DNA of 62,447 nucleotides, filler included, from Globobulimina sp. (lineage: Eukaryota), in the NCBI GenBank assembly GCA_003354225.1. It is 15 parts of 15 records of this genome, joined end to end, with 100 filler letters (N's around TTAATTAATTAA, not from the genome) between each part and the next. Parts side by side here need not be neighbours in the genome. Positions count along the whole stretch, not along the records: positions 4,178 to 8,254 come from PIVH01001648.1; positions 8,355 to 12,428 come from PIVH01001649.1; positions 12,529 to 16,601 come from PIVH01001650.1; positions 16,702 to 20,773 come from PIVH01001651.1; positions 20,874 to 24,945 come from PIVH01001652.1; positions 25,046 to 29,116 come from PIVH01001653.1; positions 29,217 to 33,286 come from PIVH01001654.1; positions 33,387 to 37,455 come from PIVH01001655.1; 7 more parts are not named here. One strand, 5' to 3'. Position numbers and translations under genes: made by a program. Numbering within the stretch: position 1 is the stretch's first letter; the number at the start of each line of letters is the position of its first letter. Below, in pieces: positions 5,489-52,989 of this stretch. The notes under the pieces were generated by a model. That model was not told where the DNA came from and did not search any database. It saw only the letters and a list, made by a program, of their open reading frames with translations.

Positions 5489-5498
5489 ATCCTTGCAC
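5489..5498 (+). promoter_or_regulatory. Recurrent non-coding motif ATCCTTGCAC (copy 1)
   Basis: Exact 10-mer, intergenic, about 140 nt after the OTU1 stop, preceded by a pyrimidine tract. Function unknown. Confidence 0.6.
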
Positions 5499-5753
5499 AA
5501 GAATCCTACCTAAATTATGTCTTTTTTTTCATCATCTGTGGTGATGCCATGCGGCTGTAAATTTGAAAAAGATCAGATAGCCAAGCGATTGCAAGGTACG
5601 TATACTTATATTTAAAATATATGCTAATATAGCCGCGCAAATTCGCAACATATAGCTACATTTAGCAGAAATGACTATGACTACGAAATAACATGTCCAA
5701 AAAACAAGTGTGGCAAAATCTGGGACTTAGCCGATTGTGATAGTGTCATTCAT

Positions 5754-8254
5754 ATGAATGAACAGCATTATTTATATTACGCGCAAGAAATTGAGAAACG
5801 ATCCTCCGTTCCAACCAAACCATGTCCATTTTGTGGCGTTGATTGCGAGCGTCCATCCACCAAATCTGTACAACGTGATGACAAATGGGGATATCGCGTA
5901 CATTGTGCCTGTAACAGTAATAATATTTATAATAAACGAGATTGGTGTTGGGAATGTCAGCAAGAATGGAAGACCAAGAATTGGGAAGATTGTGGCAATG
6001 CAAATTGTCATTTACATGCTCATCAAAATAAAAATAAAAATAAAAAGAAGAAAATTAATATGAAGGCAAGCGGAACCCTCGGCACTGCAATGGATGTGGA
6101 TGTGGATGGATTCGATGTGGGCGATATGATAAATATAAATAATAGTACCAACACACAAATACCTGCAACTCACACAACTCACACAAGCACATACCAGGTT
6201 GGACAGCAGGTGAAAGCCCGAGATCCCTCTTTTGGGGGTACCGCATTTTATGCAGCTACCATTAAAGTTGTTGAATATGATCGCGTCAAAGTGGGTTATA
6301 ATAAATGGCCTAAACCTGAGTGTGATCAATGGATAAATGAACATCAGTATGCTGATTATATCAAAATTGAAGCAGCGTCCGGATCCGCTACAGATACATC
6401 CAGTGCATCCTCGTCGATTGCTGGTGGTAAAAAAGGTAAAAACGGCAAAAACGGCAAAAACGCGACTTACAAAAACGGTAAAAATGGTAAGAAAGCGCGT
6501 AACAAAGGGAATAACGGTATTGTTGGCTTACAAAATTTAGGTAATACATGTTTTATGAACTCAGCTCTGCAGTGTTTACTACAATGCCCTGAATTTATTG
6601 AATTGTGTATGAATGACAAAATTAAATTGCCTGTATGCAGCGGCTGGGGCTCTCGCGGCAAAATTAATAAATCCTCATTAGCTTATATTTGGTGCTCATT
6701 TGTGAAACAAATTTATAGTACAAACCGTGGCTCCGTAGCACCGCGTGACATTAAGAATGGACTACGACGCTTAAATTCTGATATTGGTAATGGTACACAA
6801 CAAGATTCGTTTTGTGTGATCGAGACTTTATTACAAGGCTTAGAGGACGAATTATGTGCGGATAACCCGGATCGAATGGAGTATGATGTAAAAATTGAAC
6901 ATGACAAAGACCGGCCGAGCAAAGACGATATTGATGACATTGTGGATAAATTATGGCGCAAATATTGTGCGCATGGCGTGTCTGTGCGGGATATATTCGA
7001 TGGCGTTGAATGCGAAAAAACGCGTTGTTGTGCCTGCAATTTCGAGTTACAGACTTTTCAATCTTTTCGACAAATTGAGTTACCGTTATGTAATAAGATT
7101 ATTTCGTTGCGGATTAAGGTATTTATCCCAGAGATTCGCGAAAGTTGCGTGTTTACAGAAAATTTAACCTTGGCCTATGACAATACGATGGATGGCATAA
7201 AATACATTTTGTTGCCAAAATTAACCCAAAAATATGAATTAAAAAACACAGTAAATATTAGATTTGGTTGCATCAAATTAAATGCATCGAATAAAAGCAG
7301 CAAGAAATCGATGAACGGATGGATTGAGTACTTGGATGATAACGATAATTGTTCGAAAATCAAATGTCATTCGCAAATATTCGCAGTGGTATATACCAAT
7401 AACAAACAAGTGAGTTATGTGCCGCAATTTAATTTGATTTGCAATGAAAAAGGCACAATTTTTAGCAATTTCGTGGCCAAAAGCGATGGTTTATTGTCCT
7501 TAGACGATGAGGTGCTTACTTTTAAAAAACTGTATGGTCCTAAAAAGAATATGTGTGGCAAGCAGATGGTGGCAGAAGAGAGCAAAGTCAATCACTCCGA
7601 CTATGAATCACCGATAATATTCTATAACAATCGCGTGGTGAATGCCAGCGATAACGTAAAGATGCAGAAAAATGGCTGTTTGCTACGAATATTTGTGCAT
7701 AAAAAATATAAGAATAAGTCGCCTGCCTCGGTTTCCAAAGTTCGCTTTGATGCCAATGACCAATTAACCATTCAATGCGCATTAAATGAGAGCAATAAAT
7801 CGTCGCTGTCCTCATTGGAATGCCTTACTGAGACAGTTAAAAGTTATTGGACCAGCTTAGCCAACTTCACTTTTCATGATTTATCGTCGCTTCTTCCAGG
7901 CTTTGGCGCTGCCGATGACAATAAACAAGAAATAGCGGCCAAAACCAGTCAGGCCAAAGCTACGCACAATAAATTAAAGACTTTGTCTGAATCTGCAAAG
8001 GTGGCCAATAAGTGGTTGAGCTGGAGATTAGATTGCATCGCTAAGTCGTATGAGGCCGACAATATTAATTATACGAAAGCCAAAATGTTGGATAATTTGG
8101 ATGACTGTTTGGCTGTTTATGAATTGAATGAGACCTCAAATGCCAACGTGTTGGATTGCCCGCGCTGCGCGCCCCAATTTCCAGAGATTGTATCTCGGAA
8201 AGTTGATATATTAAAGACGCCGAAAGTGTTATTAATACATATTGACCGTGAGGA
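5754..8254 (+). CDS. Ubiquitin-specific protease (C19), 3'-partial, with N-terminal IBR-like Zn finger and Tudor-like domain
   Basis: Cys box GLQNLGNTCFMNSALQCL, QQDS, C..C Zn ribbon, PKVLLIH. N-terminal CPFC..HCAC..WCWEC..C..C. The ORF runs into the linker. Confidence 0.9.
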
Positions 8255-8354
8255 NNNNNNNNNNNNNNNNNNNNNNNNNNNNNNNNNNNNNNNNNNNNTT
8301 AATTAATTAANNNNNNNNNNNNNNNNNNNNNNNNNNNNNNNNNNNNNNNNNNNN

Positions 8355-8482
8355 CCCTTTTCTTTTCGGCATCCTCCAAGACCACCTTCCAACTCGGCCC
8401 TTTTTTCCTGCGCCACAGCTGCGAGATCTTTCAAAACTTGGATCTCCTGTGCTCTGGCCACGTCCTCCGGGTCGTACGGCAC
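8355..8482 (-). other. GC-rich exon fragment of a different gene at the contig start
   Basis: Open frame VPYDPEDVARAQEIQVLKDLAAVAQEKRAELEGG after a CTGCAG acceptor; visibly higher GC than the rest of the contig. Confidence 0.4.
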
Positions 8483-8507
8483 CTGCAGATGAGCAGAAGT
8501 TTAAATA

Positions 8508-9889: not shown

Positions 9890-9940
9890 TTAACTAAAGA
9901 ATTATTTTTTGTTTATATAAATATTCAAGAATTTGTAAGT

Positions 9941-11405: not shown

Positions 11406-11455
11406 TGAGGTTCTTTGAGTTTTCACTGAGTTCTCGATCAACATACAACAAAAAG

Positions 11456-12374: not shown

Positions 12375-12528
12375 CGTTGAAGCTGCATAAAAAAAAAACC
12401 TGCTCTTTTACTTGTCGAGCCTGGAATCNNNNNNNNNNNNNNNNNNNNNNNNNNNNNNNNNNNNNNNNNNNNTTAATTAATTAANNNNNNNNNNNNNNNN
12501 NNNNNNNNNNNNNNNNNNNNNNNNNNNN

Positions 12529-13364: not shown

Positions 13365-13415
13365 GGTCGCTTAAAGTGATTGGCTAAACTTAGAATTATC
13401 AAGCGAGAAAGTGAA

Positions 13416-14684: not shown

Positions 14685-14720
14685 TTTCCCTGGCACTGCT
14701 ACAAGACGGTGGTTCCACTA

Positions 14721-15788: not shown

Positions 15789-15837
15789 GATGCTAAGAAC
15801 AGTTGAATATTTTTGTGAAGTAGTTTTCTATATAAAA

Positions 15838-17438: not shown

Positions 17439-17481
17439 TAGTAACTCCTTTATTGATTTGTATAATGTATGTTGTGTGCAG

Positions 17482-17727: not shown

Positions 17728-17799
17728 ATTATCTTCTCCTATTGAGATTTATACACAACTAGGTATTATGCCATTAAATTATATAAAGGAGAAGAAGTT

Positions 17800-18366
17800 A
17801 TGGGTTTTGAAGAACATAAAGAAAGAGAAGATTTAATTGTTGAAATAGAACAAAAATCTTCAAAAATTTATAATGATTATGAAGAATTAATAAACAATAC
17901 TGAAAAAGAAGTTATTTCTCATGTCAAATCAAGAATTGAAGATATTAAGGAAGTTTTCTATAAATTTCTAGTTAATAAGGGTTTTGAATGGTCAATTGAT
18001 CAAACAGCACAAAATAGACCAGGGTATGAATCACAGAAAGAATTAATATATAAAAAAAACATGAAACTTTCTATTGATATTAATAAGGTAGAATTTACAG
18101 ATAAAATTAGTAGTTTTTATGGATTGCTGTTAATAACTTCAGACAAGAAAAACTTCTATCAATACTCAATAAATTTCCCGGTAAATAAATCTTTAATTTA
18201 TAAACAAACACCTTTTAAAAGGTTTCAAATAAGGGATATTGAAAAAGAATTTTCTAAATGGGAAGATAAAATTATTGATGATTTAGCCCACTTAAATGAA
18301 ATGGGTGTATTTTATAATGATAAGCCTGAAGTTGCTTCATTTTCTAAAAATGAGATTAATAAAAAT
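17800..18366 (+). CDS. Bacterial hypothetical protein, truncated at a chimeric junction
   Basis: AAGGAG upstream of ATG 17800; no similarity to CFAP58 until about 18367. The junction position is approximate. Confidence 0.55.
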
Positions 18367-19314
18367 GGACATTTTGAGATGAAAGAATTGAGCGAATCCG
18401 TCAAATGTTTGGAAAAACAAAAGATAAAAAAAGACGAAATATTAGTAAATGCGGAAAAGTTATTATGCTCTCAAGACACAGAAATAAAGACATTACGCCG
18501 TACATTATCCGAAGCCCACAATCGAGAGAAGCAAGAAAAGCAAGTATTCGATTCCATAGTGGATGAGCGGGATATTTTAGGCGGACAATTAATTCGTAGA
18601 AATGATGAGTTGGCATTGTTGTACGACAAGATCAGATTAATGGAGTCTACATTAGAAAAAGGAGAAATTGAGTACAGAAACACTTGTCAGGACAAACGCA
18701 ATTTGTGTTTGAAATTAAATAATATCAAAAGACAGCTCAATATCCGCAACGAGCAATATAACAATATGAATAAATTAAAGTATGAGGTACACCATTTGCA
18801 GAGGGAATTGTTGCAGGAAAGGACAAAAGTTAAAGCTCTCTCTGAAGAATTGGAGAATCCAATCAATGTACATAGATGGCGGAAATTGTCAGGCTCTGAC
18901 CCTGATCAATTTGAATCGATTCAAAAGATACAAACATTGCAGAAACGATTAATTGCAAAAACTGAAGAAATTGTCGAAAAGGATTTAATTATTCAAGAAA
19001 AGGAAAGATTATACATTGAATTAAAAAATATATTAGCTCGACAACCCGGGCCTGAAGTGATTGAGCAAATAAATATTTATCAAAACACATTAAAACAAAG
19101 AACTCGGCAAATTAAATCAAATGCTGCTGAATTAAATATGCTACAAACACAAATAAGTCAATATAAATATGATATGAACAATTTAAATAATGAGTTGGTG
19201 AATGTTAAAAAAAAATACTATCAACAAAAGAAAAAAGAACAACTTTGGAAAGAACAATCAAGAAATATAGCGACTGAAGTACCAGCTACAGCTCATCAAA
19301 TAAAACCACTGTAA
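18367..19314 (+). CDS. CFAP58: C-terminal half of cilia- and flagella-associated protein 58
   Basis: ERDILGGQLIRRNDELALLYDKI, ELENPINVHRWRKL, LQKRLIAKTEE and LARQPGPE are diagnostic CFAP58/CCDC147 blocks. Confidence 0.9.
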   Translation, partial: GHFEMKELSESVKCLEKQKIKKDEILVNAEKLLCSQDTEIKTLRRTLSEAHNREKQEKQVFDSIVDERDILGGQLIRRNDELALLYDKIRLMESTLEKGEIEYRNTCQDKRNLCLKLNNIKRQLNIRNEQYNNMNKLKYEVHHLQRELLQERTKVKALSEELENPINVHRWRKLSGSDPDQFESIQKIQTLQKRLIAKTEEIVEKDLIIQEKERLYIELKNILARQPGPEVIEQINIYQNTLKQRTRQIKSNAAELNMLQTQISQYKYDMNNLNNELVNVKKKYYQQKKKEQLWKEQSRNIATEVPATAHQIKPL

Positions 19315-19786: not shown

Positions 19787-19797
19787 GTGCAAGGATA
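19787..19797 (-). promoter_or_regulatory. Recurrent motif TATCCTTGCAC (copy 2)
   Basis: GTGCAAGGATA on the + strand; 12 nt downstream of, and sense to, the minus-strand gene ending at 19810. Confidence 0.6.
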
Positions 19798-19809: not shown

Positions 19810-20547
19810 TTAGTAACGAAAATGTGCTCTTGCAGCAGTAGCACCCCGATTAGTAATGCAAAATTCTTTAATTTTGAATGTATGTACATTGCTTAACAAT
19901 GATACTCCCAAATAATATGATTTTGTTGTGTCAACATTCTCAAATAAGAGACCTAAATTAATATCATTTAATTGAGCTTCGATTGTGCGTTTTGGAACAT
20001 TAAATGTTATTTTTATGACTTGTTTTCCTTTTATTTCCACGAATGGATAGAATTCGGGCATTTCTTTTTCAGACCGAGCTGTCCGAGCAGCTAATTCTTG
20101 ATGATCCCATTTAGATCTCTGCGCAAGATCCCATACGTAATAACAAAATGGATTTTTCATATTAAATGCATAGGTATTCAAATTGAGTTGGTTTGATTCT
20201 GTAAACCCAATGGCAACGGCGGACTCAAATTCACTAAAATCGTCCATTTCAAAAGTCCATTTAAACGTTGATTGCGGAGTTTGTTTCGGATTTATTTGTG
20301 TTGAACCAAATACTGTGTTATAATCCCATTCTAACGCACTTAATGCACCGTATCTAATTCCATTTTTATATTTAATCTCAATATGTTTTCCATGATTTCC
20401 AAATTCTTCTGTCTCAAAAAAATACACCAAACATAACGATGTCACTAAATCTGGAACGTTTTTATCGTGTCGATTAACAAAACCATACACAATTTTCTTA
20501 CACCATTCATCAATGCCTTTCAATTTGTTAAAAATGTTTGCATCCAT
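19810..20547 (-). CDS. SPRY/B30.2-like protein with N-terminal 'IVYGF..VPDLV..LCL.Y' motif
   Basis: Same architecture as 11456..12374 (FKWTF, AIGF, VIKITFN...TI, YYLGVSL); likely start MDANIF. Confidence 0.6.
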   Translation of the reverse strand: MDANIFNKLKGIDEWCKKIVYGFVNRHDKNVPDLVTSLCLVYFFETEEFGNHGKHIEIKYKNGIRYGALSALEWDYNTVFGSTQINPKQTPQSTFKWTFEMDDFSEFESAVAIGFTESNQLNLNTYAFNMKNPFCYYVWDLAQRSKWDHQELAARTARSEKEMPEFYPFVEIKGKQVIKITFNVPKRTIEAQLNDINLGLLFENVDTTKSYYLGVSLLSNVHTFKIKEFCITNRGATAARAHFRY

Positions 20548-21073
20548 TCTTTTTGTTAAAAAATGTGCTAAACCTTGAAATTCTATCTGTAAAAAGTTTT
20601 TTAAATCAACAACTCCACATTTTAATTTTATCACTACCGACACTAAGAACAACATGTTATACAAATTAGTATTTTTAGCATTATTACTCGTCGCAAACGT
20701 ACCTAATATCGCAGCAGATAATTCACGACAATTATTACAAGCCACACCTAGCACCACCGGTGACGATGCCACTNNNNNNNNNNNNNNNNNNNNNNNNNNN
20801 NNNNNNNNNNNNNNNNNTTAATTAATTAANNNNNNNNNNNNNNNNNNNNNNNNNNNNNNNNNNNNNNNNNNNNAACCCTCTCCTATAGTCATACATGTAT
20901 GATTTTTAATTATTTTTCATAGTCATACATAATTCATTATCTCGGACGAGATCCCCTTTATTTCATAAATCATATCTGAATATATGATTCTGTGTCTTAT
21001 AGGAGTTAACCCTGTAGGTTAATTCCTTTCGTATTTCTATCTTTCTTTTACTGTGTTTCTGTAATATGAATAG

Positions 21074-30928: not shown

Positions 30929-32196
30929 TTATACGGATGGATAAGATGGTTCCATCAATATGCCACATTCTCCAGAATTTCCATTCTTACCGCAATGTTT
31001 ACAAATTAATATATATCCATTCATTCCTATACGCACAAAAAAACAAAATCCATTCCACAAATATTGCGAATTTGCGTATATACAAAATACAACATACCCC
31101 ATGAAGCACCCCAACTGTTCTTCACTTTCCAATACTGCTGACTTCCCGAGGTACCATAACCAACCGCCAAAACACCATGATCTAATCGGGTACCACACGT
31201 ACCGTCCAATATACCACCCGAATAATGTTGAAATGCGGTCTGATCAGCTTCAATGGCAATGCTTACAGGTCCTTCAGCTACGGCGGCTTCTAATGAAGTC
31301 TCGCTATTTGCACTCACATCTTTATACCCTGTGATTGCATCATATTTAGTACCACACGTCGACGATTTGCAAGCTCCATCCCTCGCTGTATACGCATACT
31401 CCGACGTACTGCATAAACCACCGACTGCTTTGATATATTTGAATGCATTGTCCATTAAGCCACCATTGCATCCATTGTTGCCATACGAACCGGAACAATC
31501 TGCACAAACACAACGCGTACATGAGAATTTGCGACAATATGTGTACATTACATACCTACTAATTGTTGCTCTGATAAACTGGTAATACTTGCACCAGTTT
31601 GTTGATGTGCAATGGCATAACGCGATTCTAAGGCGCCAGTGGAGGAAAATGCCTATGTAGATATTATATGTGCGATTTCGCGTATATTAGATGTGAATAT
31701 ATGGCCATACCCAACATGAACCACAACTTCCTTGGTTTTTAACAGGGGTCACATAATTACCATTGTTATTGGTCCAATCAATGGAGTCTGGCGCATCAAC
31801 CTCGGGCGTGATGGGTGTCATCGCCACTCTCTGTCTCACAGTTCTTTTGAGCATACATGATTCACTATGGCCATGGATATATAATCGAAATTCCTCACTG
31901 GTCATATCACTGAATTGATTTACACGCATTGTGAATGTACGGCCGCCCGCAATGTTAAAATCATTAATCATTTTCCAGTTTTCTAAAAAGGTAATAAATG
32001 CAGCCGCTTCTGCTGGCATATCTAAATATACTTTGTTGAATTCTTGTTTCCATGATTCAAAGGCTGCGGCATGATCCAAATTGTCCCAATCGAAGGTAAT
32101 TTCTTGTCTCCACGCTTCGTTCATTGATAGTGCACCATAGGGATTCTGGTCGAAGCCAAATGCTACACCTAATAATAATGCGATAATGGCTTTCAT
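30929..32196 (-). CDS. Cathepsin L-like papain-family protease (C1A), 4 exons
   Basis: Signal peptide, I29 propeptide (NQFSDMT), QGSCGSCWAFS, LDHGVLAVGYG, YWKVKNSWG. Introns 31653-31710, 31500-31555 and 31027-31097. Confidence 0.95.
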
Positions 32197-32399
32197 GGTT
32201 GGGGTTGCTTTTAGATGCTTTGTTGCTAAGGTAGGAGAATGATCAGGAGACGCAAGAAACGATGGGAAAGAAAGCAAGCGGCGAAAAAAAACTTTTTAAT
32301 TCAAGGAATGCAGCTTAAATCTTCAAAATACTAAAAAATCCGAAAATATATTTCAAAATTGGAAAACACATATTTGTTGAATAAGAGAGATAAAACAGT

Positions 32400-34764: not shown

Positions 34765-34870
34765 AATATATAATCTATTGATTTATTTGATTACGTTGCT
34801 GCAGCAATGATACCTGAAATGTGGATAGTTTTTTTTGTGAAGAAAAGTTTTCAGCTTCTAGCTCACAATA

Positions 34871-36169
34871 ATGAAAGCTGTAATAGTTGTCGTGTTAGCA
34901 ATTACGCTGCTTCATGTTCAAGAAGCGGTATATTCAACACCCAAAATGGCAGAGGCATGGAAACGAGAAATAACACATGATTTTGAAAATTTGGACCATG
35001 CAAATGCATTCAAAAACTGGCAAAAAGCATTTAATAAAAAATACTTTGATTTGAAAGAAGAAGGACATCGATTCATGATATTTTTGCAAAATTGGAAAAT
35101 GATCAACGAATTTAACATTGCAAGAAATAGAAATTTTACCCTCAGATTAAATCAGTTTGCTGATTTAAATGGAGAGGAATTTAAATATTATGTTCATGGC
35201 CATACAGGCTCATGTTTGAAACATCAAACTGTTGAAACAAACGCAACAAAACAACCAAAAAAAATAACAAATATGGATGCTCCCGATTCAATCGATTGGA
35301 CAAATTACAATGGTAATAATTATGTAACTCCCGTTAAAAATCAGGAGCAGTGTGGAAGTTGCTGGTATATAATATATATAAATATATGTTCACGTACATA
35401 ATTATTATACATTTTATATTGAATATAGGGCTTTTTCAGCAACTGGCTCAATTGAGTCACGCTCTGCGATTGCAAACCGACAGAGCGGTGCTGCTATTAT
35501 CCCATTATCAGAACAGCAATTAGTTGGTATGCATGCACTATGAATATACTGTTCCACATTGCAATTGTTGAGTTGTTTTATGTTTTAATTGTACAGATTG
35601 TTCGAGCGAGTATGGAAATCATGGCTGTAATGATGGTTCAATGGGTGATGCATTCAGATATATTATGGCCAGTGGCGGATTATGCTCTGAAAAGGAATAT
35701 CATTATAAAGGAAGACAGGGTACTTGCGAAGCATTGTCATGTGGCAACATATATGATGCAACAACTGGATATCAAGATGTTGTTCGAGAGTCGGAAGCAT
35801 CACTGGTGGAGTCATTGGTTGATGGACCAGTATCGATTGCTGTTGAAGCGGATCAATCTGCATTTCAGTTTTATTCGAGTGGGATCTTAGATGGATTGTG
35901 TGGTACTAAATTGGATCATGGTGTATTGGCTGTTGGCTATGGAACAGGGTCAGGTGAGGATTATTGGAAAGTAAAAAATAGTTGGGGACCATCATGGGTA
36001 TGTTTTAATACATTGTATCAACTCTTTTTGTTATTATATCGCTCAGTTGTTGTCGTTTGTTGATATGTAGGGTATGAATGGATACGTGTTAATTTGTAGG
36101 AATTGTGGTAAAAATGGTGGCAGCGGAGAGTGTGGCATATTGAGGCAGCCTTCATACCCCATTGTCTAG
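34871..36169 (+). CDS. Cathepsin L-like papain-family protease, paralogue of 30929..32196, 4 exons
   Basis: QEQCGSCWAFS, LDHGVLAVGYG, YWKVKNSWG; introns 35365-35428, 35527-35596 and 35998-36070; stop TAG 36167-36169. Confidence 0.95.
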
Positions 36170-40814: not shown

Positions 40815-41747
40815 CTATATATATTGTATTTGTTATCTCAATCTTTTTTTTTGGTTTATTTTAATTTGTGTTTCTATTTTATGTTTGCACACCACTCAAT
40901 ATTTTAATTTCACACAACACACAAACTGAATATGTAAAAAAATTGCGAGTATGAAAAACGTTTGTTTTCAAACTGAACTTGAAACATATTAATAATGAAA
41001 TCCACCAAATCAGTTATAAGCTTACTTTGTTTCACCAAAATTGAGCTTTGTCTCACAAACTCAGACCACTTTGTTTGAGTACTCAATTTTCAACATTAAA
41101 TGGCACAAAACAATCCTCGCAGCCAAGTCTAAATGGTCCAACTTTGGAGCAGTTGTAATTCCTCTGCTTTTGATTAATTCTAAAGGCGTTATTTTGGTTT
41201 TCGACGTATTGGAAATGACATCAATGTCATCATCGCTATCAACGCTATCATCACTGCTATAATCAGTCTCTGATTCAGTTTGTTCTGAATCATATTCACA
41301 CACTTCTTTTGTTGATTTATTTTGTTTTGTGCGTGTTGTATTATTTTCATTATTTCGCATCTAAATATATTAGTGAGTGCCAGGATAAGTACTAACGTTT
41401 CCAGAAACAGTCAGTAAGTCACTGACCGGTCACCCCGTTTTTTAAAAAATTGACAAAGAGCATAACTAATCGCGTGTTAGGGTAATTAGAAGAATATGGT
41501 GGCTGTGAAAACATTATATATTAATATGTAATATAATTCACACCAGGCACAAAACATACAATGTATTTGGTAGTATGATATTCTTCCCGTTCTTCCATAT
41601 CTTTCTCGTTTGTTTTTGCAGGNNNNNNNNNNNNNNNNNNNNNNNNNNNNNNNNNNNNNNNNNNNNTTAATTAATTAANNNNNNNNNNNNNNNNNNNNNN
41701 NNNNNNNNNNNNNNNNNNNNNNATTCACAGAGCGATTTTGAAAGCAA

Positions 41748-41758
41748 TATCCTTGCAC
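41748..41758 (+). promoter_or_regulatory. Recurrent motif TATCCTTGCAC (copy 4)
   Basis: Non-coding, 25 nt from the contig start, beyond the 3' end of the UBC gene. Confidence 0.6.
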
Positions 41759-41970
41759 TCAGAGATAATTAAAAGTAGCATGAAATCGCTAACTGATATT
41801 TATTCATTTTATTGAACACAACTTGTTTTTTTGAGCGCAACAAAAAGCAAAATAAATAAATAGCATTGATCAAAAAAAAAATAAGTTTTATCCTCGCACA
41901 ATAAGAGGTTAGAATAGTTAGAATTTATTTTTATTTGAAAAAAAAAAAGGCAAATTAAAGCAATGTTAAT

Positions 41971-42420
<450 letters not shown>

Positions 42421-42483
42421 CTATTTTGTTTATATATTTGTTGTTGCGTTTGGTTTTTAGTTTTTGTTCTGTTTGTTTCGGTG

Positions 42484-42494
42484 TATCCTTGCAC
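42484..42494 (+). promoter_or_regulatory. Recurrent motif TATCCTTGCAC (copy 5)
   Basis: About 70 nt upstream of the UBC start codon, antisense to the flanking genes. Confidence 0.6.
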
Positions 42495-42699
42495 GGGATT
42501 CAATAATTATTATTGCAAAATATTTCTATTTTTTTCGAACTGTAGTTTGAAAATTCTTGTTCTTTTGTGTTTGGAAGAGGCATGGAATGAAATACAGGCA
42601 CCTGTTTGTTGGGTAGCAGGCAAGTCGTGAAAGCGAGGACGATGGAGATGGAGCTTCAAGTGCGAATAGGAGTTTTGCTGAGGATTTTTGTTTAAGATT

Positions 42700-43020
42700 T
42701 TAATTTAAGGCACTAACGAGTTGGCTGTATAATTGTTCGAATTTGAAAACAGTTATTGCTGATATTTGTTTTTCTTCATTTATCACGTTGTATGGTAATG
42801 ATGCGTTGATTTCTTTGGTTAATTGTTTATAGTGGTTTATTAGCTTAGATTCTTGATTGGTGTTTTCTGTATGAATATACCTTGGGTTTTCACGTTTTGC
42901 TTTGCGGGTTTTATTGGATTTGCTGTTTTTACGTTTTTCATCTTGGATGAATGTTTGCAATTTGTCTTTGAGAGACTGCTCTTGCACGCATAACATTTTA
43001 TATTTTGAAGACAAGTCCAT
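42700..43020 (-). CDS. Hypothetical small basic protein
   Basis: 106-aa ATG ORF; no motif recognised. Confidence 0.4.
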   Translation of the reverse strand: MDLSSKYKMLCVQEQSLKDKLQTFIQDEKRKNSKSNKTRKAKRENPRYIHTENTNQESKLINHYKQLTKEINASLPYNVINEEKQISAITVFKFEQLYSQLVSALN

Positions 43021-43148
43021 CGATTTGAATGTAGCTATTACTGAATCTCAATTATGAGCTGTTTGCATAATCGGAAATAATTTTAAATTAACACATAACA
43101 TTTATATAAACAAAAAATAGATCATTTCAATCACTCAGTCTCTGAGCA

Positions 43149-45789: not shown

Positions 45790-45934
45790 NNNNNNNNNNN
45801 NNNNNNNNNNNNNNNNNNNNNNNNNNNNNNNNNTTAATTAATTAANNNNNNNNNNNNNNNNNNNNNNNNNNNNNNNNNNNNNNNNNNNNATGCCTATGGT
45901 GGAGGTGCTTATGACTAATTTTTACTTTTGTCCT

Positions 45935-45945
45935 TATCCTTGCAC
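45935..45945 (+). promoter_or_regulatory. Recurrent motif TATCCTTGCAC (copy 6)
   Basis: 16 nt after a probable + strand stop (..GGTGCTTATGACTAA ending at 45918). Confidence 0.6.
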
Positions 45946-46050
45946 ATTAAGTATACACTATATTTAGTAAGTTATTACTAATCGGCGGCGGATCAATAAT
46001 ATGAAACAACAACAACACAAACATACACAACAAAAAACGTACAGTTTAAA

Positions 46051-47155
46051 TTAATTAATTGATATTTTGGATGTAACTATAATTTTATTGGTATGCGTAA
46101 TGACTTTGACAGACAACGATGTATTACCAACAGCATCAGATCCTTCTTGACGAAGCGTTTGATTTATAAAGGATCCATTTTGTAATATTTTTTTAAATTT
46201 ACTTTCTTTTTTAACACCGATCGGTCTCTCAATTTGTAATATTATGGATTGTATATCTTTTCGGTTATTACCTTGATCATGAACAAAGGCGCTGTAATCA
46301 TATTTACTGAGGAAAGGTCCCCACGCTCTTCGATCTATCGAATACGTAATATTCCAATTTCTTCCTCCTTTCACTGTGTTACTAACTGTTTTTTTCTTTT
46401 GTTCAAATATTGGCGGTGGGGCGCTTTCAGTATCTTCAATTTCATTCTTTGCTTCTCGTTGTTTAAAATCAATGTCATGATCATCCTCACTGTACAATAT
46501 AATATATAATATTATTAATATACATATATAAACACATTATACATAGTACATACTCCCAATCAATCTCTTTTGGAACGGTAAAAATATATTTATTCCAGAT
46601 CATAATATGTCGAATAACATCAGATAAATGAACAGCGTTTTTGCGTTGATATAAAGCGTTCGTAATAAAACCAAAATACTCAATTTGCGTAGACGAATAT
46701 CCAAAAACATTTAAACTTTCATAGTCTGCATCATCTGATTCGAATTTATTATTATTACCATTCTCGTTTAATACATCGATACAAAATACAGTTGGAATAA
46801 AAAATTGCTTTGCAAAACTAAATAATTCATATATCTTTAACCAAGAAATAGTTTCATTATCAGAGGTTATTAAATATTTATTATTTCCTTTACCAATAAT
46901 ATTTATTATCAAATAATCGTAAGGTTCGCTATTGATATTAAAACGAGTTTCTTTTATGAAATCTAATAATGAATTTAAAGACAAATAGGCTGTTTTTTGC
47001 GCATTTAATACTAATTTATAATCCATATTTTTGGGACCCCATATGGATGAATGTGTATCTATCAATAAATTAACCTTATCATTAAATTGTTTGCTGTTTT
47101 TATCGCCTTTATAGTTCCCCAAAGATAATACAACGGCAAGTCCTGTTTCTGTCAT
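46051..47155 (-). CDS. Degenerate caspase-fold (C14 p20-like) protein, intron 46490-46553
   Basis: LAVVLSLGNY, YDYLIINIIGKG (His position = Lys), LITSD, PTVFCIDVLN (Cys position = Leu). The intron joins two ORFs in frame. Confidence 0.5.
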
Positions 47156-47231
47156 ACTGACTACCTATGCTTAATTAATATAAACTGTGAGTACCACAAA
47201 AAAACACTAAAACCTAAAGAAAATTAATGCT

Positions 47232-49100
47232 ATGTTCACCCAACTGTCTTCTGGTAAATCTACTGATCACCAACGACGATATAAACACATGTTTAAAAAA
47301 ATACACGACCTTAAACACCAATATGTATATAAAGCAAAGCTACGTCGCTTTGTGCAATGTTTGTGTGCCATATTTATTATCATTCTCATATTTTTACTGT
47401 ATCAACACATCATTTCAATTCAATATTTGTCGTCAATCTTTGATACCAACAAACATGTGAATAAAACAACGAATTATAATGTAAGCAGCAACCATAATAA
47501 TGCGAATCATCCATCTTTGCAGAATGAACTGGGAATGAATCTTTCCAAACTGTTAGAACAAAATGGAATTAATATTGTACAATTCATTAAACATTACGGC
47601 GAGAACAATCTAAGCCACCCGATAGAAAATAAAAAATCAAACAAATCATCATCCGGATTGATTAACATATGGAATAAAAATATTTCAGACACTCCACCGA
47701 TAAAAATCTCAAAATCTGTATTAAATGACATTGAAATCTCAAATGTTGTGTGGGATTTCGGCGCTTGTGGCTGTACGGGATGGGGAGTGGGTATGTCATG
47801 CATTATATCCTTGCACAGCATATTGTAAATAATATATAACAACATAGAGACTGTCAACATAATTAAGCCTTTATACGACAGAGTTTGTTCAAATATAAAA
47901 CTAATCACAGATTATGATTGTTGGTGTCCAGGTTTTTTAGATTCGACGGTAGATTTAATGAACAGTTTGCAATCTACCTCAGATTATTTAGACTGGGATG
48001 GAAATGAAAATGGAATTGAAATATTTATATCGCACAAACCAGCCTCACGGTATCCAACATTCCCATATTACGGTCTCATAAACATTGCGAAACGGCCGCA
48101 AATAGTGATTGGTCGCTCTATGATCGAAGTTGATTACATTCCAAAAGACGATCTGGATCGAATGAAGTCATCCCAATGGATCGATGAGTTGTGGGTTCCA
48201 TCACGTTTTGTGAAAATAATCTATGTTCAAAATGGCATCCATCCAAATAAAATAAGGGTGATTCCGCCCGCCATAAATATCGATATATATCCGCCCAAAC
48301 AAAAGATAAAGGCATATAAACATTTACCATCGTTAAACAGGAAAAAAAAGTTAATTAAAATAACGAAAAAAACCTTTCGGTTTCTATCGGTTTTTAAGTG
48401 GGAGCCGCGCAAAGGATATGATGTTTTATTGACTGCCTTTTTGAGGGAATTCCAGCGCAAAGATGATGTCCAATTATATTTGCAAACATATGCCTATGCC
48501 GAGAATAGTGGCAGGAGCCGAGAGGTGAGTTACTTGCAAGCGAAGTTGAATGAAACCATCTTGCAAATAATAGAGGTAAATGACGATATGGAATATGAAT
48601 ATGTTATGAAATATATGTATCCTAAAATTGAGATTATGAGCAAACGGCGCAGTATGAAGCAGTTAGCATCGTTGTATGCCACAGTAAATTGTGTGGTGTT
48701 GGCCTCGCATGGCGAAGGCTTTGGGTTACCAATATTGGAAGCAATGGCAGTGGCTACTCCGGTGATGGTAACAAAATGGAGTGGATTGCGAGATCTTGTG
48801 ATAAATGAGACCTATGGATATTTGATTGACATTGATGGTCGTGAGATGGCACGGAATACGCCGGGAAGATACGATTTTATTGAGGATAAACAAAAATGGG
48901 CAAAAATTAATGTGACCAGTTTGATGGGGAATATGCGAAATGTGTATAAATATAGGAAAAAAGCAAAAAGGATTGGCAGAAATGGACAGAAGTTTGTTTA
49001 TAAACACTTCCATCCAAATATTATAGCGGACAAAATTAAAACTCGAATGAAAGAACTTGTGTATTTAAAAAAAAATAATCAGTCATTTCTCTCTGTATAA
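47232..49100 (+). CDS. Type II membrane GT4 (GT-B) glycosyltransferase, intron 47791-47847
   Basis: TM; DELWVPS, FLSVFKWEPRKGYDVLL, SHGEGFGLPILEAMA. Splicing gives GWGV-E-TVNII in frame. Confidence 0.9.
47806..47816 (+). promoter_or_regulatory. Recurrent motif TATCCTTGCAC (copy 7)
   Basis: Inside the 57-nt GT4 intron, sense strand. Confidence 0.6.
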
Positions 49101-49179
49101 AGCCATTAAACTGACTCTGAATTGAATAACATCAACAAGAGTTTTGAAGAATAATTCAAAGTTTTCTTGTCCTCTGCAT

Positions 49180-49845
49180 ATGATGGAACAATACAAACCT
49201 CTTTTTTTACGAATTTTCTTGGTCTGCTTAATTTGGGCACTAATTATTCAAATAATTAGGTTCATCGGATATTATTTATTGACAATAACAATCCGGAAAT
49301 TGATTTATTTGTTATCTATTTTAAATTATATAGTTTATGGTTATTTTAATCATCAAAAATTTCCATATTTTATATGTAATACATTTTCAAATATCAAAGG
49401 CAAAGGTGATTTGTTAAAAATGAATATATCAATTATTGTAATATGGTTCGTAATATTTGCTTTTCAGTCCTATTTTATTTATATTGATACATCAAATGAA
49501 ATATTATCAATATTATATGTATTTGCCACATATCAACAAATAATAATTGCAATATTTGACAAATATGTCGGAAGAAAGAAATATCCAATTTTAAGAGATT
49601 TACATTATTCATCAAGTTTAATATTACTAGTCATAAATGCACAAATTTGGGGATATTCAAAATTTATATTCAAAAGTCATGCCATCATAATCAATATTAT
49701 TATTTCAAATATGATGATGTTATTATATCTTTTAACATTTTTCTATGAAACAAAATATGGTTCAATGTTATCATACGGATCAAAGTTTGTATCAAAAACA
49801 TTTGAATTGTTTTTAGTATTTGGTTCAATGTATTTATTATTGTGA
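49180..49845 (+). CDS. Hypothetical multi-pass membrane protein
   Basis: About 220 aa with 6-7 hydrophobic segments. Confidence 0.55.
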   Translation: MMEQYKPLFLRIFLVCLIWALIIQIIRFIGYYLLTITIRKLIYLLSILNYIVYGYFNHQKFPYFICNTFSNIKGKGDLLKMNISIIVIWFVIFAFQSYFIYIDTSNEILSILYVFATYQQIIIAIFDKYVGRKKYPILRDLHYSSSLILLVINAQIWGYSKFIFKSHAIIINIIISNMMMLLYLLTFFYETKYGSMLSYGSKFVSKTFELFLVFGSMYLLL

Positions 49846-50054
49846 ACTTTTTTTCTCGGCATTGAAATTTGCGTGCCAATCCTGAAAACATTTCAGAAAC
49901 ACAAAAACAGATTCGTTTTGCAAGTCTAACTCGTGAAGCTGTACTACTTCCTATNNNNNNNNNNNNNNNNNNNNNNNNNNNNNNNNNNNNNNNNNNNNTT
50001 AATTAATTAANNNNNNNNNNNNNNNNNNNNNNNNNNNNNNNNNNNNNNNNNNNN

Positions 50055-50752
50055 AATAAATTAGTGACCTGCGTAAATTGCCATCACCGAAGCGAAAACT
50101 GCATCAGCAAGACAAAATCACTAATGCGTCTGATACAGTCACCGATTCGCTTGATGCATCGATCTGCTCTAGCACTGTTGCCCACATCAGATCGCATCAG
50201 ATTTCGCGTTTTTTCCTTGTACACCACAGTCTGACAGTTGTCTATGATACAGTACAGAGACGCAATAAAATTGAGTTAATGTCCCGGTGGGAACAGATAC
50301 AACGCGGATATATCAGACCAGAAACATGTACATTGCATGAACGAAATACATATTATGATCATGAAGCAAATATGCATGGTCGACATGGAGAATATCGCTT
50401 TGTTGACACCATTATTGACGTTAATGATATCTTACAAACACACGATTCATTGGATGAGATTGTGCATAATCATAATCATAATAATCATAATCATAATAAT
50501 AGTAATAGTAAGCCAGTGAGGTGTATAACATTGGGCAAATCGACGGGATCATTGCATTCATTGTTGGATAATCCAAAGGATATTTTTACTGATCGCGAAA
50601 AGACAAAGGGGCAAATAATTAAAATTAAAATGAGAAATGATTTAAAATGGAAAAAGAGACAAATGAGGTTGCATATTAAAAAAAAGAGACGCGAAAATTT
50701 GAGATTTAAAAAGAAAACCATGCAACAACGAAACCAACGCAATGATTCATGA
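50055..50752 (+). CDS. 3' part of a hypothetical protein
   Basis: Open frame from near the contig start; HN repeat and basic tail. Confidence 0.4.
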
Positions 50753-50867
50753 TCGAAATCCACAGTATATATTACTAGTAATTATTATTATAAATTGTTT
50801 AATTTGTATTTTATACCTTGAAGTGTTTTTTTCTCAGTACGTATATTGCAATAATTGCAATAATTGC

Positions 50868-52904
50868 ATGGCTTTACAAGAACCAAAAACGAAGCAACGT
50901 CGCAGATCATCCGTCCACAAAGTAATCAACTCGTTTGGCAAAGGAATATCCAAAGGAATAACAGCGGGAGTCACCAAAACCAAGAAATTTGCCATAGAAA
51001 AAGTAGTAAAAGTTGAAGCCACTCCAGAAACTAATCAAATGATAGAATCATTAAATAAACTAAACAGCATAAAAAAAACAATATCATCGTTGTCAGACGG
51101 CACCATTACAAATCTATACACTGAACAAGTGCGGCAATCCATATATAGTTTACAATTAAGTGAAACCTTAATGTCATTAAAAACATGTCAAGCAACAAAC
51201 GATTTATTCAAAACCTTTTCAGACAACGTAATGGGCAGAAAACTATTTAAATTGAACACAATGACCAATGAATATTTAGTTAAAATGGAAAAGGAACTAA
51301 TTAATCCGCTCTTCATTTACCAATCCAAAGAATTAAAAAAAGCGGAGACATTAATAAAACACTACGAAGGCATCAAACGAGATTACGATTTCGCACTCCA
51401 TAAATACAGAAAATTAATCAGCAAAACTGAGAAGAATTCGAATTCGAAATCAACGTCAAAATGAAAAATTAATTCTAAATCCAGAAACGAAAAGGACAAA
51501 TTAATTAAATTCAAAGCATTGCAAACGCATAGAAATAAGATTACGGACTGTATAAATAATGTACAGCTCAAGCAACAGAGAGATTTATTGCATTGTTTTG
51601 AAAAGTTCTGGAAAGCTTATTTAATATTTGCAAGGCGCCAAGCTCAGATTTTGTCATTGAAGGATGACTTTGAAGAAAAATATGAAGCGCAGAAACAAAT
51701 CGATGTCGATGTCGATGTCGATGTGTTTGCACCATCGCGATATGGATCGGAGTGGCGGAACTCGCGGAAGCCAGCTTTAGTACAATCCAACTCGTTGCGA
51801 GTGGCGGTATTAATGAATTCCAATTCCAATTCGAATGCCAAGGATGAAGACAATGAGATATTAGCTAAGGAATTGCGCTATAAAAATGCCATAAAATTAG
51901 GCAGCGGTGCTTTTGCAACGGTTTATAAAGCAAATGATTTGTTGTCAGAGGATAAAGAAGTTGCGATTAAGAAGATATGCATCGGAGATGGCGCAAATGT
52001 GCTATATTTATCTTCGACGAAGGAAGAGGCCGAGAATGAATTGGAAATAATGCAATCATTGAACGGACACATAAATATTATCAAATTGCTCGATAGTTAT
52101 TATGAGCAGACTGTTTATAATGATTTGTATCTAAATTTGGTGATGGACTATGTGCCGGCTACATTGTTGTCGCAGTGTGCGTTTTATGCGGAAGCTGGTG
52201 ATACGATCAGACATAATGTCATACAAATCTATGCCTTTCAGTTGATTAAAGCCGTCAATTATATGCATATTAAGCAGATAATCCACAGAGATGTCAAGCC
52301 GGATAATTTGTTAATTAATACAAAGAATCATATGTTAAAATTATGTGATTTTGGCTGTTCCATTTCCATGAAAGTTGAAAAAGAAAAAGAGTTGGAAAGT
52401 TATGTATGTTCGAGATATTATAGAGCACCGGAACTAATATTACAAAGTGCATATTATGACTGCAGTGTTGATATTTGGTCCATTGGCTGCGTCATTGCTG
52501 AAATGTTTTTAGGTACATTGTTATTTGAAGGAGATGACGATGAAAATGAACAGTTAGATGACATTATAAAAAAATTAGGAACTCCCAATAAAAATGATAT
52601 TGATGCGATGAATGCAGATTATATTTACAAGCAAGAGTTGTTAGATAGAGATGAAAGTGGCGAGTCGTGGGATATGCTGTTTTGTGCTGTTATTGATATG
52701 CCACAAGACGCCATTCAATTAATATCACAAATGTTGATATATAATCCAAGCAATAGATTAACTGCTTTACAATGTTTAAAATGTGAATATTTTAACCGTA
52801 ATTCATTCGAATTCAAAAATGATAAAATGTGCGAGGAATTGGGATTGTTTGATTGGAACGATTTAGAGATACAATATGGCAAAGCAAGTGATATAATTTT
52901 ATGA
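50868..52904 (+). CDS. BAR-like helical domain fused to a GSK3-like (CMGC) kinase, interrupted by one in-frame TGA at 51462-51464
   Basis: Kinase motifs GSGAFATV, VAIKK, HRDVKPDN, DFG, SYVCSRYYRAPEL. BAR-like ELINPL..Y...RDYDFA before the TGA and LL..F..FWKAY..F after it, in the same frame. Confidence 0.75.
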
Positions 52905-52989
52905 TATCGATCGAATTGCATGAATTATTATTAAATGTTTTTTTTTTGTTTTTTTGTGTTGCGTACAAGGATAGAATAGAATAGATTGT

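Follow-up and report, generated by a model that had tools for sequence, protein, structure and literature searches.

A near-invariant non-coding motif of Globobulimina sp. that is probably read at gene or transcript boundaries

Several described systems rely on short sequence signals comparable to the one reported here. U12-type introns carry near-invariant, intronic, sense-strand-only words (5′ splice site RTATCCTT, branch site TCCTTRAC) read via snRNA pairing, and the histone downstream element is a sense signal just past the cleavage site of a gene subset, pairing with U7 snRNA to give an RNA end without poly(A). Sites of the yeast general regulatory factors (Reb1, Abf1, Rap1) commonly have an adjacent T tract. 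According to the available part of PMC5052057, yeast RNA 3′ ends accumulate 5–25 bp upstream of Reb1 sites; these sites are located within 3′ UTRs as well as ORFs, favour neither orientation and are frequently read through. In Blastocystis, as described in the accessible portion of PMC4159000, the GU-rich motif TGTTTGTT lies 4 nt downstream of the poly(A) sites of ~96% of genes and tolerates up to two substitutions. U1A binds the heptamer AUUGCAC in two places, stem-loop 2 of U1 and the polyadenylation-inhibition element within the U1A 3′ UTR, and an A1-to-G change costs human U1A 5 kcal/mol (excerpts of PMC2203988 and PMC3647115).

Our literature and Rfam searches revealed no described element that corresponds to TATCCTTGCAC, in agreement with a preliminary description of the same DNA, which knew of no counterpart. 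The window, i.e., the whole 62,447-nt stretch analysed (Globobulimina sp., assembly GCA_003354225.1), consists of 15 unrelated contigs of 4064–4077 nt each, separated by N44-TTAATTAATTAA-N44 spacers. The 10-mer ATCCTTGCAC is present there in seven exact copies (5489+, 19787−, 25707+, 41749+, 42485+, 45936+ and 47807+) vs. ~0.1 expected, and six of them extend to the 11-mer TATCCTTGCAC (0.025 expected), the top 11-mer of the window by enrichment. The order-3 Markov expectation for the 10-mer is 0.083 (P ~5e-12), dinucleotide-preserving shuffles contain a mean of 0.13 copies and a maximum of 1 (0/100 reach 7), and 296,810 nt of GC-matched control sequence, taken from 80 unrelated eukaryotic loci, yielded a single copy. 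When the extra 5′ T is counted, four 11-mers carry one mismatch (5488, 41377−, 41889+ and 52963−), the last three all being non-coding; with up to two mismatches, 24 copies are observed vs. 16.7 expected, a count reached by 6/100 shuffles, and this wider cloud is not enriched overall. All seven exact copies claimed previously were recovered at the same coordinates and strands, the copy with one mismatch at 52963(−) is confirmed, the distribution over five independent contigs holds, and the earlier expectation of ~0.05 copies is close to the computed 0.08–0.13. The data support a discrete, near-invariant non-coding motif, with the following sites and associated introns.

5488–5498, plus strand: AATCCTTGCAC, the exact 10-mer with A replacing T at −1; in the tandem gap between an OTU-protease ORF (stop 5345–5347) and a UCH-hydrolase ORF (opening at 5628), sense to both, 140 nt past the OTU stop, with an ATG 18 nt downstream at 5517
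19787–19797, minus strand: exact TATCCTTGCAC; sense, 12 nt past the TAA of a 320-aa minus-strand ORF (19810–20772); convergent neighbour CFAP58-like (17746–19314, plus strand)
25654–25754, plus strand: inferred intron of a TENT5-like (NTP_transf_7) gene, GTAATC..TTTTAG, one of the two best candidates
25671–25744, plus strand: the alternative best intron candidate of the same gene, GTTATT..ATACAG
25706–25716, plus strand: exact TATCCTTGCAC; sense, within the inferred TENT5-like intron, preceded by a 35-nt pyrimidine tract
41377–41387, minus strand: TATCCTGGCAC, candidate one-mismatch copy; sense, in a tandem gap, ending 16 nt before the ATG (41360) of a 99-aa minus-strand ORF
41748–41758, plus strand: exact TATCCTTGCAC; first base is the 26th of its contig; antisense to a minus-strand UBC (E2) gene, 213 nt past its stop
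41889–41899, plus strand: TATCCTCGCAC, one mismatch, then A; 141 nt downstream of the 41748 copy in identical orientation, 72 nt past the UBC stop and antisense to UBC
42484–42494, plus strand: exact TATCCTTGCAC; antisense to both minus-strand neighbours, ~205 nt past the SYF2-like stop (42700) and ~87 nt upstream of the UBC ATG (~42398)
45935–45945, plus strand: exact TATCCTTGCAC; 16 nt past the TAA (45916–45918) of a plus-strand gene, within a 132-nt gap between convergent genes
47790–47846, plus strand: 57-nt GT..AG intron of a GT4 glycosyltransferase gene, with the motif inside
47806–47816, plus strand: exact TATCCTTGCAC; sense, bases 17–27 of the GT4 intron, 30 nt before exon 2
52963–52973, minus strand: TATCCTTGTAC, one mismatch (C to U); sense, 16 nt past the TGA of a minus-strand methyltransferase ORF (52990–53901), in an 85-nt convergent gap, 58 nt past a kinase gene stop (52902–52904)

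TATCCTTGCAC probably serves as a signal at the boundaries of genes or transcripts. The interpretation that we tentatively prefer, with a probability of roughly one in three, is that nascent transcripts carry it as a sense-strand element which acts at their boundaries, as an auxiliary 3′-end/termination element for a subset of genes. In addition to the enrichment and invariance of the motif, the lack of an enriched degenerate cloud and the single control copy, its placement argues for this interpretation. With ORFs of at least 100 aa taken as a proxy for coding sequence (80% of window bases), seven of nine motif sites fall in the remaining 20% and the other two are intronic, so that the copies are non-coding as originally claimed and coding sequence contains none. 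The distance from stop codon to TATCC is 12 nt at 19787, 16 nt at both 45936 and 52963, and 140 nt at 5489, as measured for placements whose position after stop codons had been correctly reported; three of eight tested sites therefore start 12, 16 and 16 nt past a stop in sense orientation, and at least three sites at 5–25 nt from a stop are expected with P = 5e-5 (20,000 random placements of eight sites in non-ORF DNA). Sequence upstream of the sites is pyrimidine-rich (mean Y 0.64 vs. 0.50, P=1.5e-4 by resampling), which substantiates the earlier remark that several copies follow pyrimidine tracts.

At 45936, the end of the upstream gene is carried by cDNA-like contigs and the motif itself is transcribed, being bridged by X6 record 9 and X8 record 20. 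In a single X7 contig, adapter letters directly follow position 45930, 12 nt past the stop and 4–5 nt upstream of the motif, and no A-run is seen; this end, from one run, is weak evidence. All 17 indel positions of X6 between the two convergent genes are located at or beyond 45956, with none in the 37 nt spanning the stop codon through the motif, a small conservation footprint. Transcription through the motif, the indel-free stretch and, weakly, the X7 end argue for the transcript-boundary interpretation, although continuation of the X6 and X8 contigs through the motif and the blindness of contigs to strand, expression level and true RNA ends also argue against it.

The Blastocystis element provides a precedent, sharing with TATCCTTGCAC a short sense motif near the stop codon of a compact protist and a position a few bases past the RNA 3′ end, fixed in Blastocystis and represented here by one contig end 4–5 nt upstream (PMC4159000, as far as its accessible portion goes). 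In contrast to TGTTTGTT as described there, the present motif marks a minority of gene ends, is almost invariant, is not GU-rich and is also found in introns and upstream of ATGs (PMC4159000). Indeed, among the 55 ORF ends listed only two carry it (ORFs beginning at 19810 and 52990), and the contig of the GT4 gene stops 15 nt past the stop codon with no motif there; the scarcity at gene ends counts against a 3′-end role. So do the tandem-gap copies, which lie 140 nt and ~97 nt past the upstream stop, far beyond the 3′ UTRs of ~12–15 nt seen where RNA evidence exists (5′ UTRs, ~20–25 nt), and closer to the downstream ATGs, which begin 16–18 nt past the motif end. The 41377 copy, which accounts for one of these two gaps, may be a chance match, since about one such copy is expected.

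The two intron placements proposed in the preliminary description are correct, and one is now verified by splicing: the GT4 intron is skipped in all three cDNA-like runs (X6, X7 and X8) and retained in X1, a DNA-like run. The TENT5-like intron is inferred from sequence, with 10 of 14 frame-preserving GT..AG pairs enclosing the motif. Both intronic copies are in sense orientation, in favour of the preferred interpretation, yet a sense 3′-end signal within an efficiently spliced intron is awkward for it. U12-type signals have ATCCTT in common with the motif and are similarly near-invariant, but the verified intron begins with GTATGT, and its copy of the motif lies 16 nt in from that 5′ end and 30 nt short of the 3′ splice site; the base preceding TATCC varies, and most copies are non-intronic.

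The main rival explanation, almost as probable as the preferred one, places the signal in DNA: a sequence-specific protein, which could be a regulon-specific transcription factor or, like yeast Reb1, Abf1 or Rap1 with an adjacent T tract, a factor of the general regulatory, boundary or roadblock kind, would bind the motif and organise nucleosome-free gene boundaries, block read-through polymerases or co-regulate a gene set. Copies are present in every non-coding class and one is clearly antisense, as expected of orientation-independent action: the copy at 42484–42494 is the single clear exception in orientation, opposed to both flanking minus-strand genes, its antisense direction having been noted earlier. 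This copy, together with those at 41749 and 41890, antisense to their sole visible neighbour, argues against a sense-strand element; we agree, however, that 41749 is unassignable because a possible upstream plus-strand gene would be off the contig. Orientation-informative sites (introns and tandem gaps) give 4 sense vs. 1 antisense, a non-significant ratio that further weakens the case for sense-strand reading; few informative sites underlie the sense bias, and the motif may be read at either the RNA or the DNA level. Many copies adjoin T-rich tracts, UBC and the ORF at 41360 each have a copy <90 nt ahead of the start codon, and another copy precedes the ATG at 5517 by 18 nt; all of this would suit a DNA site, as would the proximity (<250 nt) of a copy to OTU, UCH and UBC, the window's full set of three ubiquitin-system genes.

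Similarity to yeast Reb1-type roadblocks, as covered by the available part of PMC5052057, extends to a discrete, protein-sized site in intergenic DNA, 3′ UTRs and gene bodies, with RNA 3′ ends shortly upstream and read-through at many sites; the adapter-tagged X7 end combined with read-through in other runs is compatible with this pattern. The yeast sites described there are nevertheless orientation-free and mostly promoter-located (PMC5052057), whereas here neither the two mapped transcription starts (47178− and 47207+) nor the intervening 28-nt promoter has the motif, three copies adjoin stop codons in sense orientation, and the binding protein is only putative. An orientation-free site would not predict the tight post-stop placement, two copies lie in convergent gaps (85 and 132 nt) where there is no promoter, and near-total invariance over 10–11 bp, with few one-mismatch copies, would be unusual for a transcription-factor site.

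Such invariance, with almost no degenerate copies, is a signature of nucleic-acid pairing, and a rather improbable alternative is that the motif is the pairing target of a small nuclear RNA carrying the complement GUGCAAGGAUA, for which the histone downstream element with U7 snRNA and the invariant U12-type signals are the closest analogies. The best-placed variant (52963, C to U) would retain a G-U pair, but those at 41890 and 41377 would lose a pair. The sites are unstructured (fold z-scores −1.8 to +1.4, no common fold, a small AUCC/GGAU hairpin being possible only at 42484–42494), which fits both the linear single-strand recognition proposed under the preferred interpretation and snRNA pairing. 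The contig end 4–5 nt upstream, where adapter letters follow without an A-run, is in line with a histone-like arrangement, in which a sense-strand element is located just downstream of a putative cleavage site in a gene subset; this likeness is drawn from one contig end, and unlike the histone case no upstream stem-loop, histone genes or U7-like RNA were found. In the conserved stem-II segment of U6 snRNA, 9 of 10 bases presumably agree with the reverse complement of the motif, which would accordingly resemble the 5′ end of U4 snRNA. A near-match of a 10-mer among snRNAs is, however, expected by chance at the few-percent level, and a second, unrelated resemblance was seen (U1 stem-loop 2). No candidate RNA was detected in the window: Rfam gave 0 matches at gathering score, and an E<=10 scan of 41723–43100 returned no snRNA and only weak snoRNA-like chance matches.

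The resemblance to U1 stem-loop 2 reflects the 3′ half of the motif, UUGCAC, which provides six of the seven bases of the U1A heptamer, and U1A sites likewise function in sense orientation close to poly(A) sites (PMC2203988 and PMC3647115, within the parts available). Departing from the sites described there, the first A is replaced by C, a stem with a closing C-G pair is missing at 7/8 sites, and the invariant UAUCC half is left unaccounted for (PMC2203988, PMC3647115).

Descent from one mobile element or repeat family (footprints or terminal remnants, e.g., introner-like or MITE-like) is very unlikely, even though identical copies with very few diverged ones could mean recent spread and two copies are intronic. 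In an alignment of eight sites with 40 nt on either side, 9 of 10 invariant columns fall in the motif and the flanks are unrelated, none of the 20 largest repeat families listed carries the motif, no inverted partner copies were found near the sites, and spacing from stop codons is non-random; the earlier exclusion of a dispersed repeat or transposon is thereby upheld. Chance, composition bias and a library or assembly artefact are effectively refuted. Two of the seven exact copies are <50 nt from a contig start, a possible assembly effect, but the other five are contig-internal, and the Markov and shuffle statistics speak against chance. The 45936 copy is present in contigs of runs from three studies, the intron holding the 47807 copy is spliced out precisely, and adapter letters at loose contig ends lack the motif, which disposes of the primer or adapter match considered at the outset.

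Overall, under the preferred transcript-boundary interpretation, TATCCTTGCAC (UAUCCUUGCAC as RNA) would be a lineage-specific cis-element of an extremely compact genome, located just outside coding sequence (after stops, before ATGs and in short introns), where a highly sequence-specific factor, a putative protein or RNA, would bind the single-stranded sense motif on nascent Pol II transcripts. At the 3′ ends of a minority of genes, it may function as a downstream auxiliary element, setting the point of cleavage or termination a few bases upstream of the motif and halting read-through into the convergent neighbour, while the intronic and 5′-proximal copies may represent the same binding site engaged in co-transcriptional marking or latent processing.

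The 10-mer ATCCTTGCAC is a real, strongly enriched and near-invariant non-coding word of the window, placed non-randomly beside the ends of coding sequences. All seven exact copies announced in the preliminary description were recovered at their positions, as compared with a mean of 0.13 and a maximum of one copy in shuffled sequences, and with 0.083 copies expected under an order-3 Markov model (P about 5e-12). Together with the preceding T, the motif (TATCCTTGCAC) is the top-enriched 11-mer of the window (6 copies vs. 0.025 expected). Only one 10-mer, ATGGCCATGG, has a higher enrichment, which is due mostly to a local coding repeat at 25367–25379; this repeat (25367–25390) codes for a His/Gly-rich stretch within exon 1 of a gene for a TENT5-like protein. 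The copies considered here, of which the seven exact ones and 52963 (minus) constitute the eight main sites, are as follows.

Copies of the motif in the window (position, strand, match)
5489, plus: exact 10-mer; the 11-mer from 5488 has one mismatch
19787, minus: exact 10-mer
25707, plus: exact 10-mer
41377, minus: one-mismatch 11-mer
41749, plus: exact 10-mer
41889, plus: one-mismatch 11-mer (variant 10-mer at 41890)
42485, plus: exact 10-mer
45936, plus: exact 10-mer
47807, plus: exact 10-mer
52963, minus: one-mismatch 11-mer

Allowing for up to two mismatches in the 11-mer yielded 24 matches vs. 16.7 expected, including six exact matches and four with one mismatch; given so few degenerate copies, the motif is close to invariant. 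The next base is A after five of the seven exact copies. Among shorter words, the 7-mer TTTCTAT occurs 47 times window-wide vs. 18.6 expected, an excess to which an imperfect tandem array within contig 6 (23195–23371) contributes in part, and it forms the final bases ahead of the motif at 25707 and 52963.

The window is composed of 15 length-sorted contigs of 4064–4077 nt joined by spacers (N44-TTAATTAATTAA-N44) and is not one locus. Its GC content is 0.335, and 80% of its bases fall within ORFs of at least 100 aa, reflecting a very tight packing of eukaryotic genes, for which the following Pfam matches were obtained.

Pfam matches in the window
OTU and UCH deubiquitinases, UBC E2, SYF2-like C-terminus
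TENT5-like nucleotidyltransferase, GT4 glycosyltransferase, CMGC kinase
fn3 and CFAP58 domains
Cathepsin L paralogues, AIG1 GTPase
Methyltransferase, LanC-like protein

The closest protein relatives of the kinase are 57–58% identical, with none above 58% in the protein search; a metagenome scan with the kinase alignment returned 80 loci, all at 44% identity or less and, hence, without a close relative, and a metagenome scan with GT4 exon 2 as a query found no relatives. These 80 unrelated eukaryotic metagenome loci (296,810 nt, GC 0.32, i.e., similar to the window) were used as a control, where we found a single motif copy, ~34-fold fewer per base than in the window. Two cathepsin L-like genes on neighbouring contigs, at 31027–32295 (minus strand) and 34862–36063 (plus strand), are each split by one intron, and the pair has a 179-nt stretch with 75% complementarity. 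The start of contig 14 carries a direct repeat of 129 nt with 95% identity (54220–54348 and 54767–54895) followed by a second repeat of 49 nt (90%), a sequence pattern that suggests a local duplication of ~180 nt. An exon-1/intron model for the UCH gene (5596–5632) was dropped due to its broken frame.

The distribution of copies relative to stop codons is the clearest aspect of their placement. Those at 19787 (minus), 45936 (plus) and 52963 (minus), previously described as sense-oriented and stop-proximal, do begin 12, 16 and 16 nt past the stop, respectively, and at least three sense copies 5–25 nt after a stop were obtained just once in 20,000 random placements of eight sites within non-ORF DNA (P = 5e-5). 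The gaps between convergent genes that harbor 45936 and 52963 are just 132 and 85 nt long. Besides being 16 nt past the methyltransferase gene (sense), the 52963 copy lies just beyond where the kinase gene (antisense) presumably has its poly(A) region; the end of the kinase gene (52905–52962) is organized in textbook fashion as a stop codon, 25 nt, ATTAAA and a long T/GT-rich run leading to the reverse-complemented motif variant. A larger distance holds, as proposed, for the copy at 5489, located 140 nt past the upstream stop; this copy and 41377 (minus; ~97 nt past a stop) occupy tandem gaps, 18 and 16 nt ahead of the next ATG, respectively. Between the OTU stop and 5489, an exact 17-nt direct repeat containing AATAAA (5358–5374 and 5438–5454, 80 nt apart) may represent a duplicated poly(A) signal region.

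Three plus-strand copies are found around the UBC gene, which is encoded on the minus strand: 42485, ~87 nt upstream of its ATG, and 41890 (variant) and 41749, 72 and 213 nt beyond its stop. The antisense status assigned to 42485 stands, this being the sole clear antisense case; 41890 and 41749 may go with a plus-strand gene that lies beyond the contig start, outside the sequence. All three ubiquitin-system genes, OTU, UCH and UBC (4610–8254; 41971–42420), have the motif within 250 nt, the number of such loci being small. The exact copies 41749 and 45936 begin at contig bases 27 and 47, both facing inward, and a two-mismatch copy at 58399 lies 16 nt into the last contig. This pattern may have arisen by chance or through an effect of assembly in the vicinity of T-rich tracts; since cDNA-like contigs extend upstream of 45895, the contig start there is not a chromosome end. 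The reported pyrimidine tracts are also borne out by the 30 nt ahead of the motif (mean 0.64 vs. 0.50, P = 1.5e-4), and this excess may in part be a mere consequence of T-rich sense strands (introns, 3' flanks) and of A-rich 5' leaders on the opposite strand.

A number of known identities were considered for the motif. In an alignment of the eight main sites with ±40 nt, 9/10 invariant columns are inside the motif and the flanks do not align, in agreement with the earlier view that it is not a dispersed repeat or TE, and none of the 20 largest repeat families listed, out of at least 60, bears the motif. A library adapter match, previously set as a test, was not found, the adapter letters near 45936 occurring without the motif; an adapter or primer artefact was also rejected given that five of the seven copies lie >700 nt from a contig end and that 45936 is present in runs from three studies. 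Mobile-element remnants and, least probable of all, chance or an artefact are both essentially excluded. No nearby complement of at least 8 nt exists at any of the eight main sites, and no RNA fold is shared across them (z-scores −1.8 to +1.4). Rfam models gave no matches at the gathering score across the whole window, and none of the seven matches listed at E ≤ 10 in 41723–43100 is U1, U2, U4, U5 or U6 (four of them are weak, chance-level snoRNA-family models, E 4–8.6, with bit scores far under gathering); no tRNA was found. A U4 snRNA gene at 42485 was ruled out, as no U-snRNA match was listed at E ≤ 10 in 41723–43100.

A coded peptide was dropped because the reading frame varies between sites. 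A U12 intron signal was likewise dropped despite the common ATCCTT. The U12 5' splice-site word stands precisely at the exon–intron junction, where the motif would be misplaced, beginning at base 17 of the verified intron, 16 nt in from a GTATGT 5' end, and the base preceding TATCC is free (A, C, G and T among sites). The U12 branch-site word lies about 10–20 nt from the 3' splice site, while the distance from the motif end to exon 2 is 30 nt in the verified intron and 28–38 nt in the inferred one, and the motif has one extra base relative to the U12 branch-site consensus. The literature string matches listed (supplements being outside the search) were primers, siRNAs and miRNAs with no cis-element, consistent with the initial statement that no matching described element is known.

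RNA-like evidence comes from contig 45890–49954, i.e., from two of the eight main sites, and is based on a comparison of contigs (not reads) from the DNA-like run X1 and from the runs X6, X7 and X8, whose "RNA?" flag is a guess and which we treat as cDNA-like because of their spliced joints. The copy attributed to the GT4 intron, 47807, is indeed located, in sense orientation, inside a 57-nt GT..AG intron (47790–47846) that is skipped by contigs of all three cDNA-like runs (joint 47789 to 47847) and retained in X1, which places it within a real, efficiently removed intron. Placement of 25707 in an intron of the TENT5-like gene is likewise upheld for an inferred intron: 10 of the 14 frame-preserving GT..AG pairs enclose the motif, including both pairs with plausible splice sites. 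On the same contig as the GT4 gene, adapter letters at 47207 (X6) and 47178 (X7, X8) mark RNA ends. These represent the starts of two divergent genes, separated by 28 nt, and both genes have 5' UTRs of ~20–25 nt. The interval 47178–47207 is an extremely short bidirectional promoter with RNA ends adapter-tagged in 2–3 runs; ACCACAAAAAAAC, an A-rich word, is found at 47193 and again at 34009.

At the 3' side, the GT4 contig of X6 stops 15 nt past the stop codon, with the motif absent. The contigs of these runs give several hints on function, all of them weak. The motif at 45936 is spanned in X1, X6 and X8, and, since contigs of X6 (record 9) and X8 (record 20) run across it, it lies within transcribed sequence. 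These two contigs derive from relatives ~3–5% diverged, and all 17 indel positions of the convergent gap in X6 are at 45956 or beyond, with none from the stop through the motif end, while X8 shows at most one substitution across 45895–45978; this constitutes a weak and small constraint footprint that covers the 40 nt following the stop, with the motif central. One X7 contig (from one of the three cDNA-like runs) has adapter letters right behind 45930, without an A-run, and ends 12 nt past the stop and 4 nt ahead of TATCC, a contig end as such being unable to prove an RNA end. The cover gaps of X7 (45931 to about 46206) and X1 (45890–45930) were given no weight.

We propose, with a probability of about 35%, that the motif acts at transcript boundaries, as a sense-strand element that is read single-stranded in nascent transcripts. 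In a minority of genes, it would provide an auxiliary downstream element fixing cleavage/termination a few bases upstream, in the setting of a genome with 3' UTRs of about 12–15 nt. We class the motif as a candidate cis-element of gene boundaries or 3' ends in a compact protist genome. Its nearest documented analogue is found in Blastocystis, where a motif is located at exactly four bases beyond the poly(A) site (PMC4159000). The Blastocystis motif is near-universal, GU-rich and degenerate, whereas here most gene ends are without the word. The motif differs from a general poly(A) downstream element of the Blastocystis type in its presence at gene ends, which is far from near-universal: of the 55 ends listed (ORFs of at least 120 aa), only 19810 and 52990 carry the motif, in addition to the gene end at 45918, and several ends without it have A[AT]TAAA instead. 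A sense-strand boundary element is also at odds with the antisense copy 42485 and with the tandem-gap copies, which are closer to the next ATG than to the previous stop, and a 3'-end signal in a well-spliced intron would be awkward.

The main rival reading, which we hold to be only slightly less probable, is a duplex-DNA site of a putative high-specificity boundary, roadblock or regulon factor. Yeast Reb1-type sites are found in gaps, ORFs and 3' UTRs with no orientation preference and frequent read-through, and Pol II stalls at them, with RNA ends accumulating 5–25 bp upstream as a result (PMC5052057). The mixed locations of copies, the T tracts, the one antisense copy (42485) and the presence of a copy near each of the three ubiquitin-system genes speak for a DNA site, which does not, however, predict the tight sense-oriented spacing from stops, and both mapped promoters are without the motif. 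Orientation-informative sites include four sense vs. one clear antisense, and one contig end (not a proven RNA end) lies 5 nt ahead of the 11-mer.

Pairing with a putative small RNA bearing the complement of the motif is an unlikely explanation, in favor of which one can note the near absence of degenerate copies and the G–U pair that would survive the C-to-U change of the best-placed variant. In more specific and still less probable versions, the motif would be a target of a lineage-specific snRNA with GUGCAAGGAUA, guiding cleavage/termination a few bases upstream in a subset of protein-coding genes alongside the A[AT]TAAA route, or would act within pre-mRNA by mimicking the 5' end of U4 and engaging U6. 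The guide-RNA version, a route to mRNA 3' ends and boundaries, would resemble a U7/histone-like mechanism that reaches beyond histone genes. With snRNAs of other organisms as the reference, the motif complement agrees in 9 of 10 bases with the stem-II segment conserved in U6 snRNA, so that the motif resembles a U4 5' end. In addition, the 3' half of the motif (UUGCAC) shares six of seven bases with the U1A-binding heptamer AUUGCAC, which acts near poly(A) sites and has a first base critical for human U1A (PMC2203988, PMC3647115). A U1A/U2B''-type RRM site (PIE-like) was rejected, as the copies read CUUGCAC, CUUGUAC, CUCGCAC or CUGGCAC, with the critical first base wrong; seven of the eight folds leave the site unpaired, without the stem of a C-G-closed loop, and 42485 alone can form AUCC/GGAU. 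The finding of two unrelated snRNA resemblances implies that 10-mers easily near-match snRNAs.

Overall, ultra-compact eukaryotic genomes have only tens of bases in which to terminate a transcript and to begin or shield the one that follows, and, to our knowledge, the transcript-boundary solution of ultra-compact eukaryotes is known for few lineages only (e.g., Giardia, Trichomonas, Blastocystis). The motif offers a ready entry point for experiments on how gene boundaries are defined in a flagellate lineage that is poorly studied or uncultured. If its reader is an RNA guide, RNA-guided mRNA processing would gain a new class, and, if a protein, a high-specificity factor would be identified; under either an RNA or a protein reader, the motif would contribute to better gene-end annotation for fragmentary single-cell assemblies.
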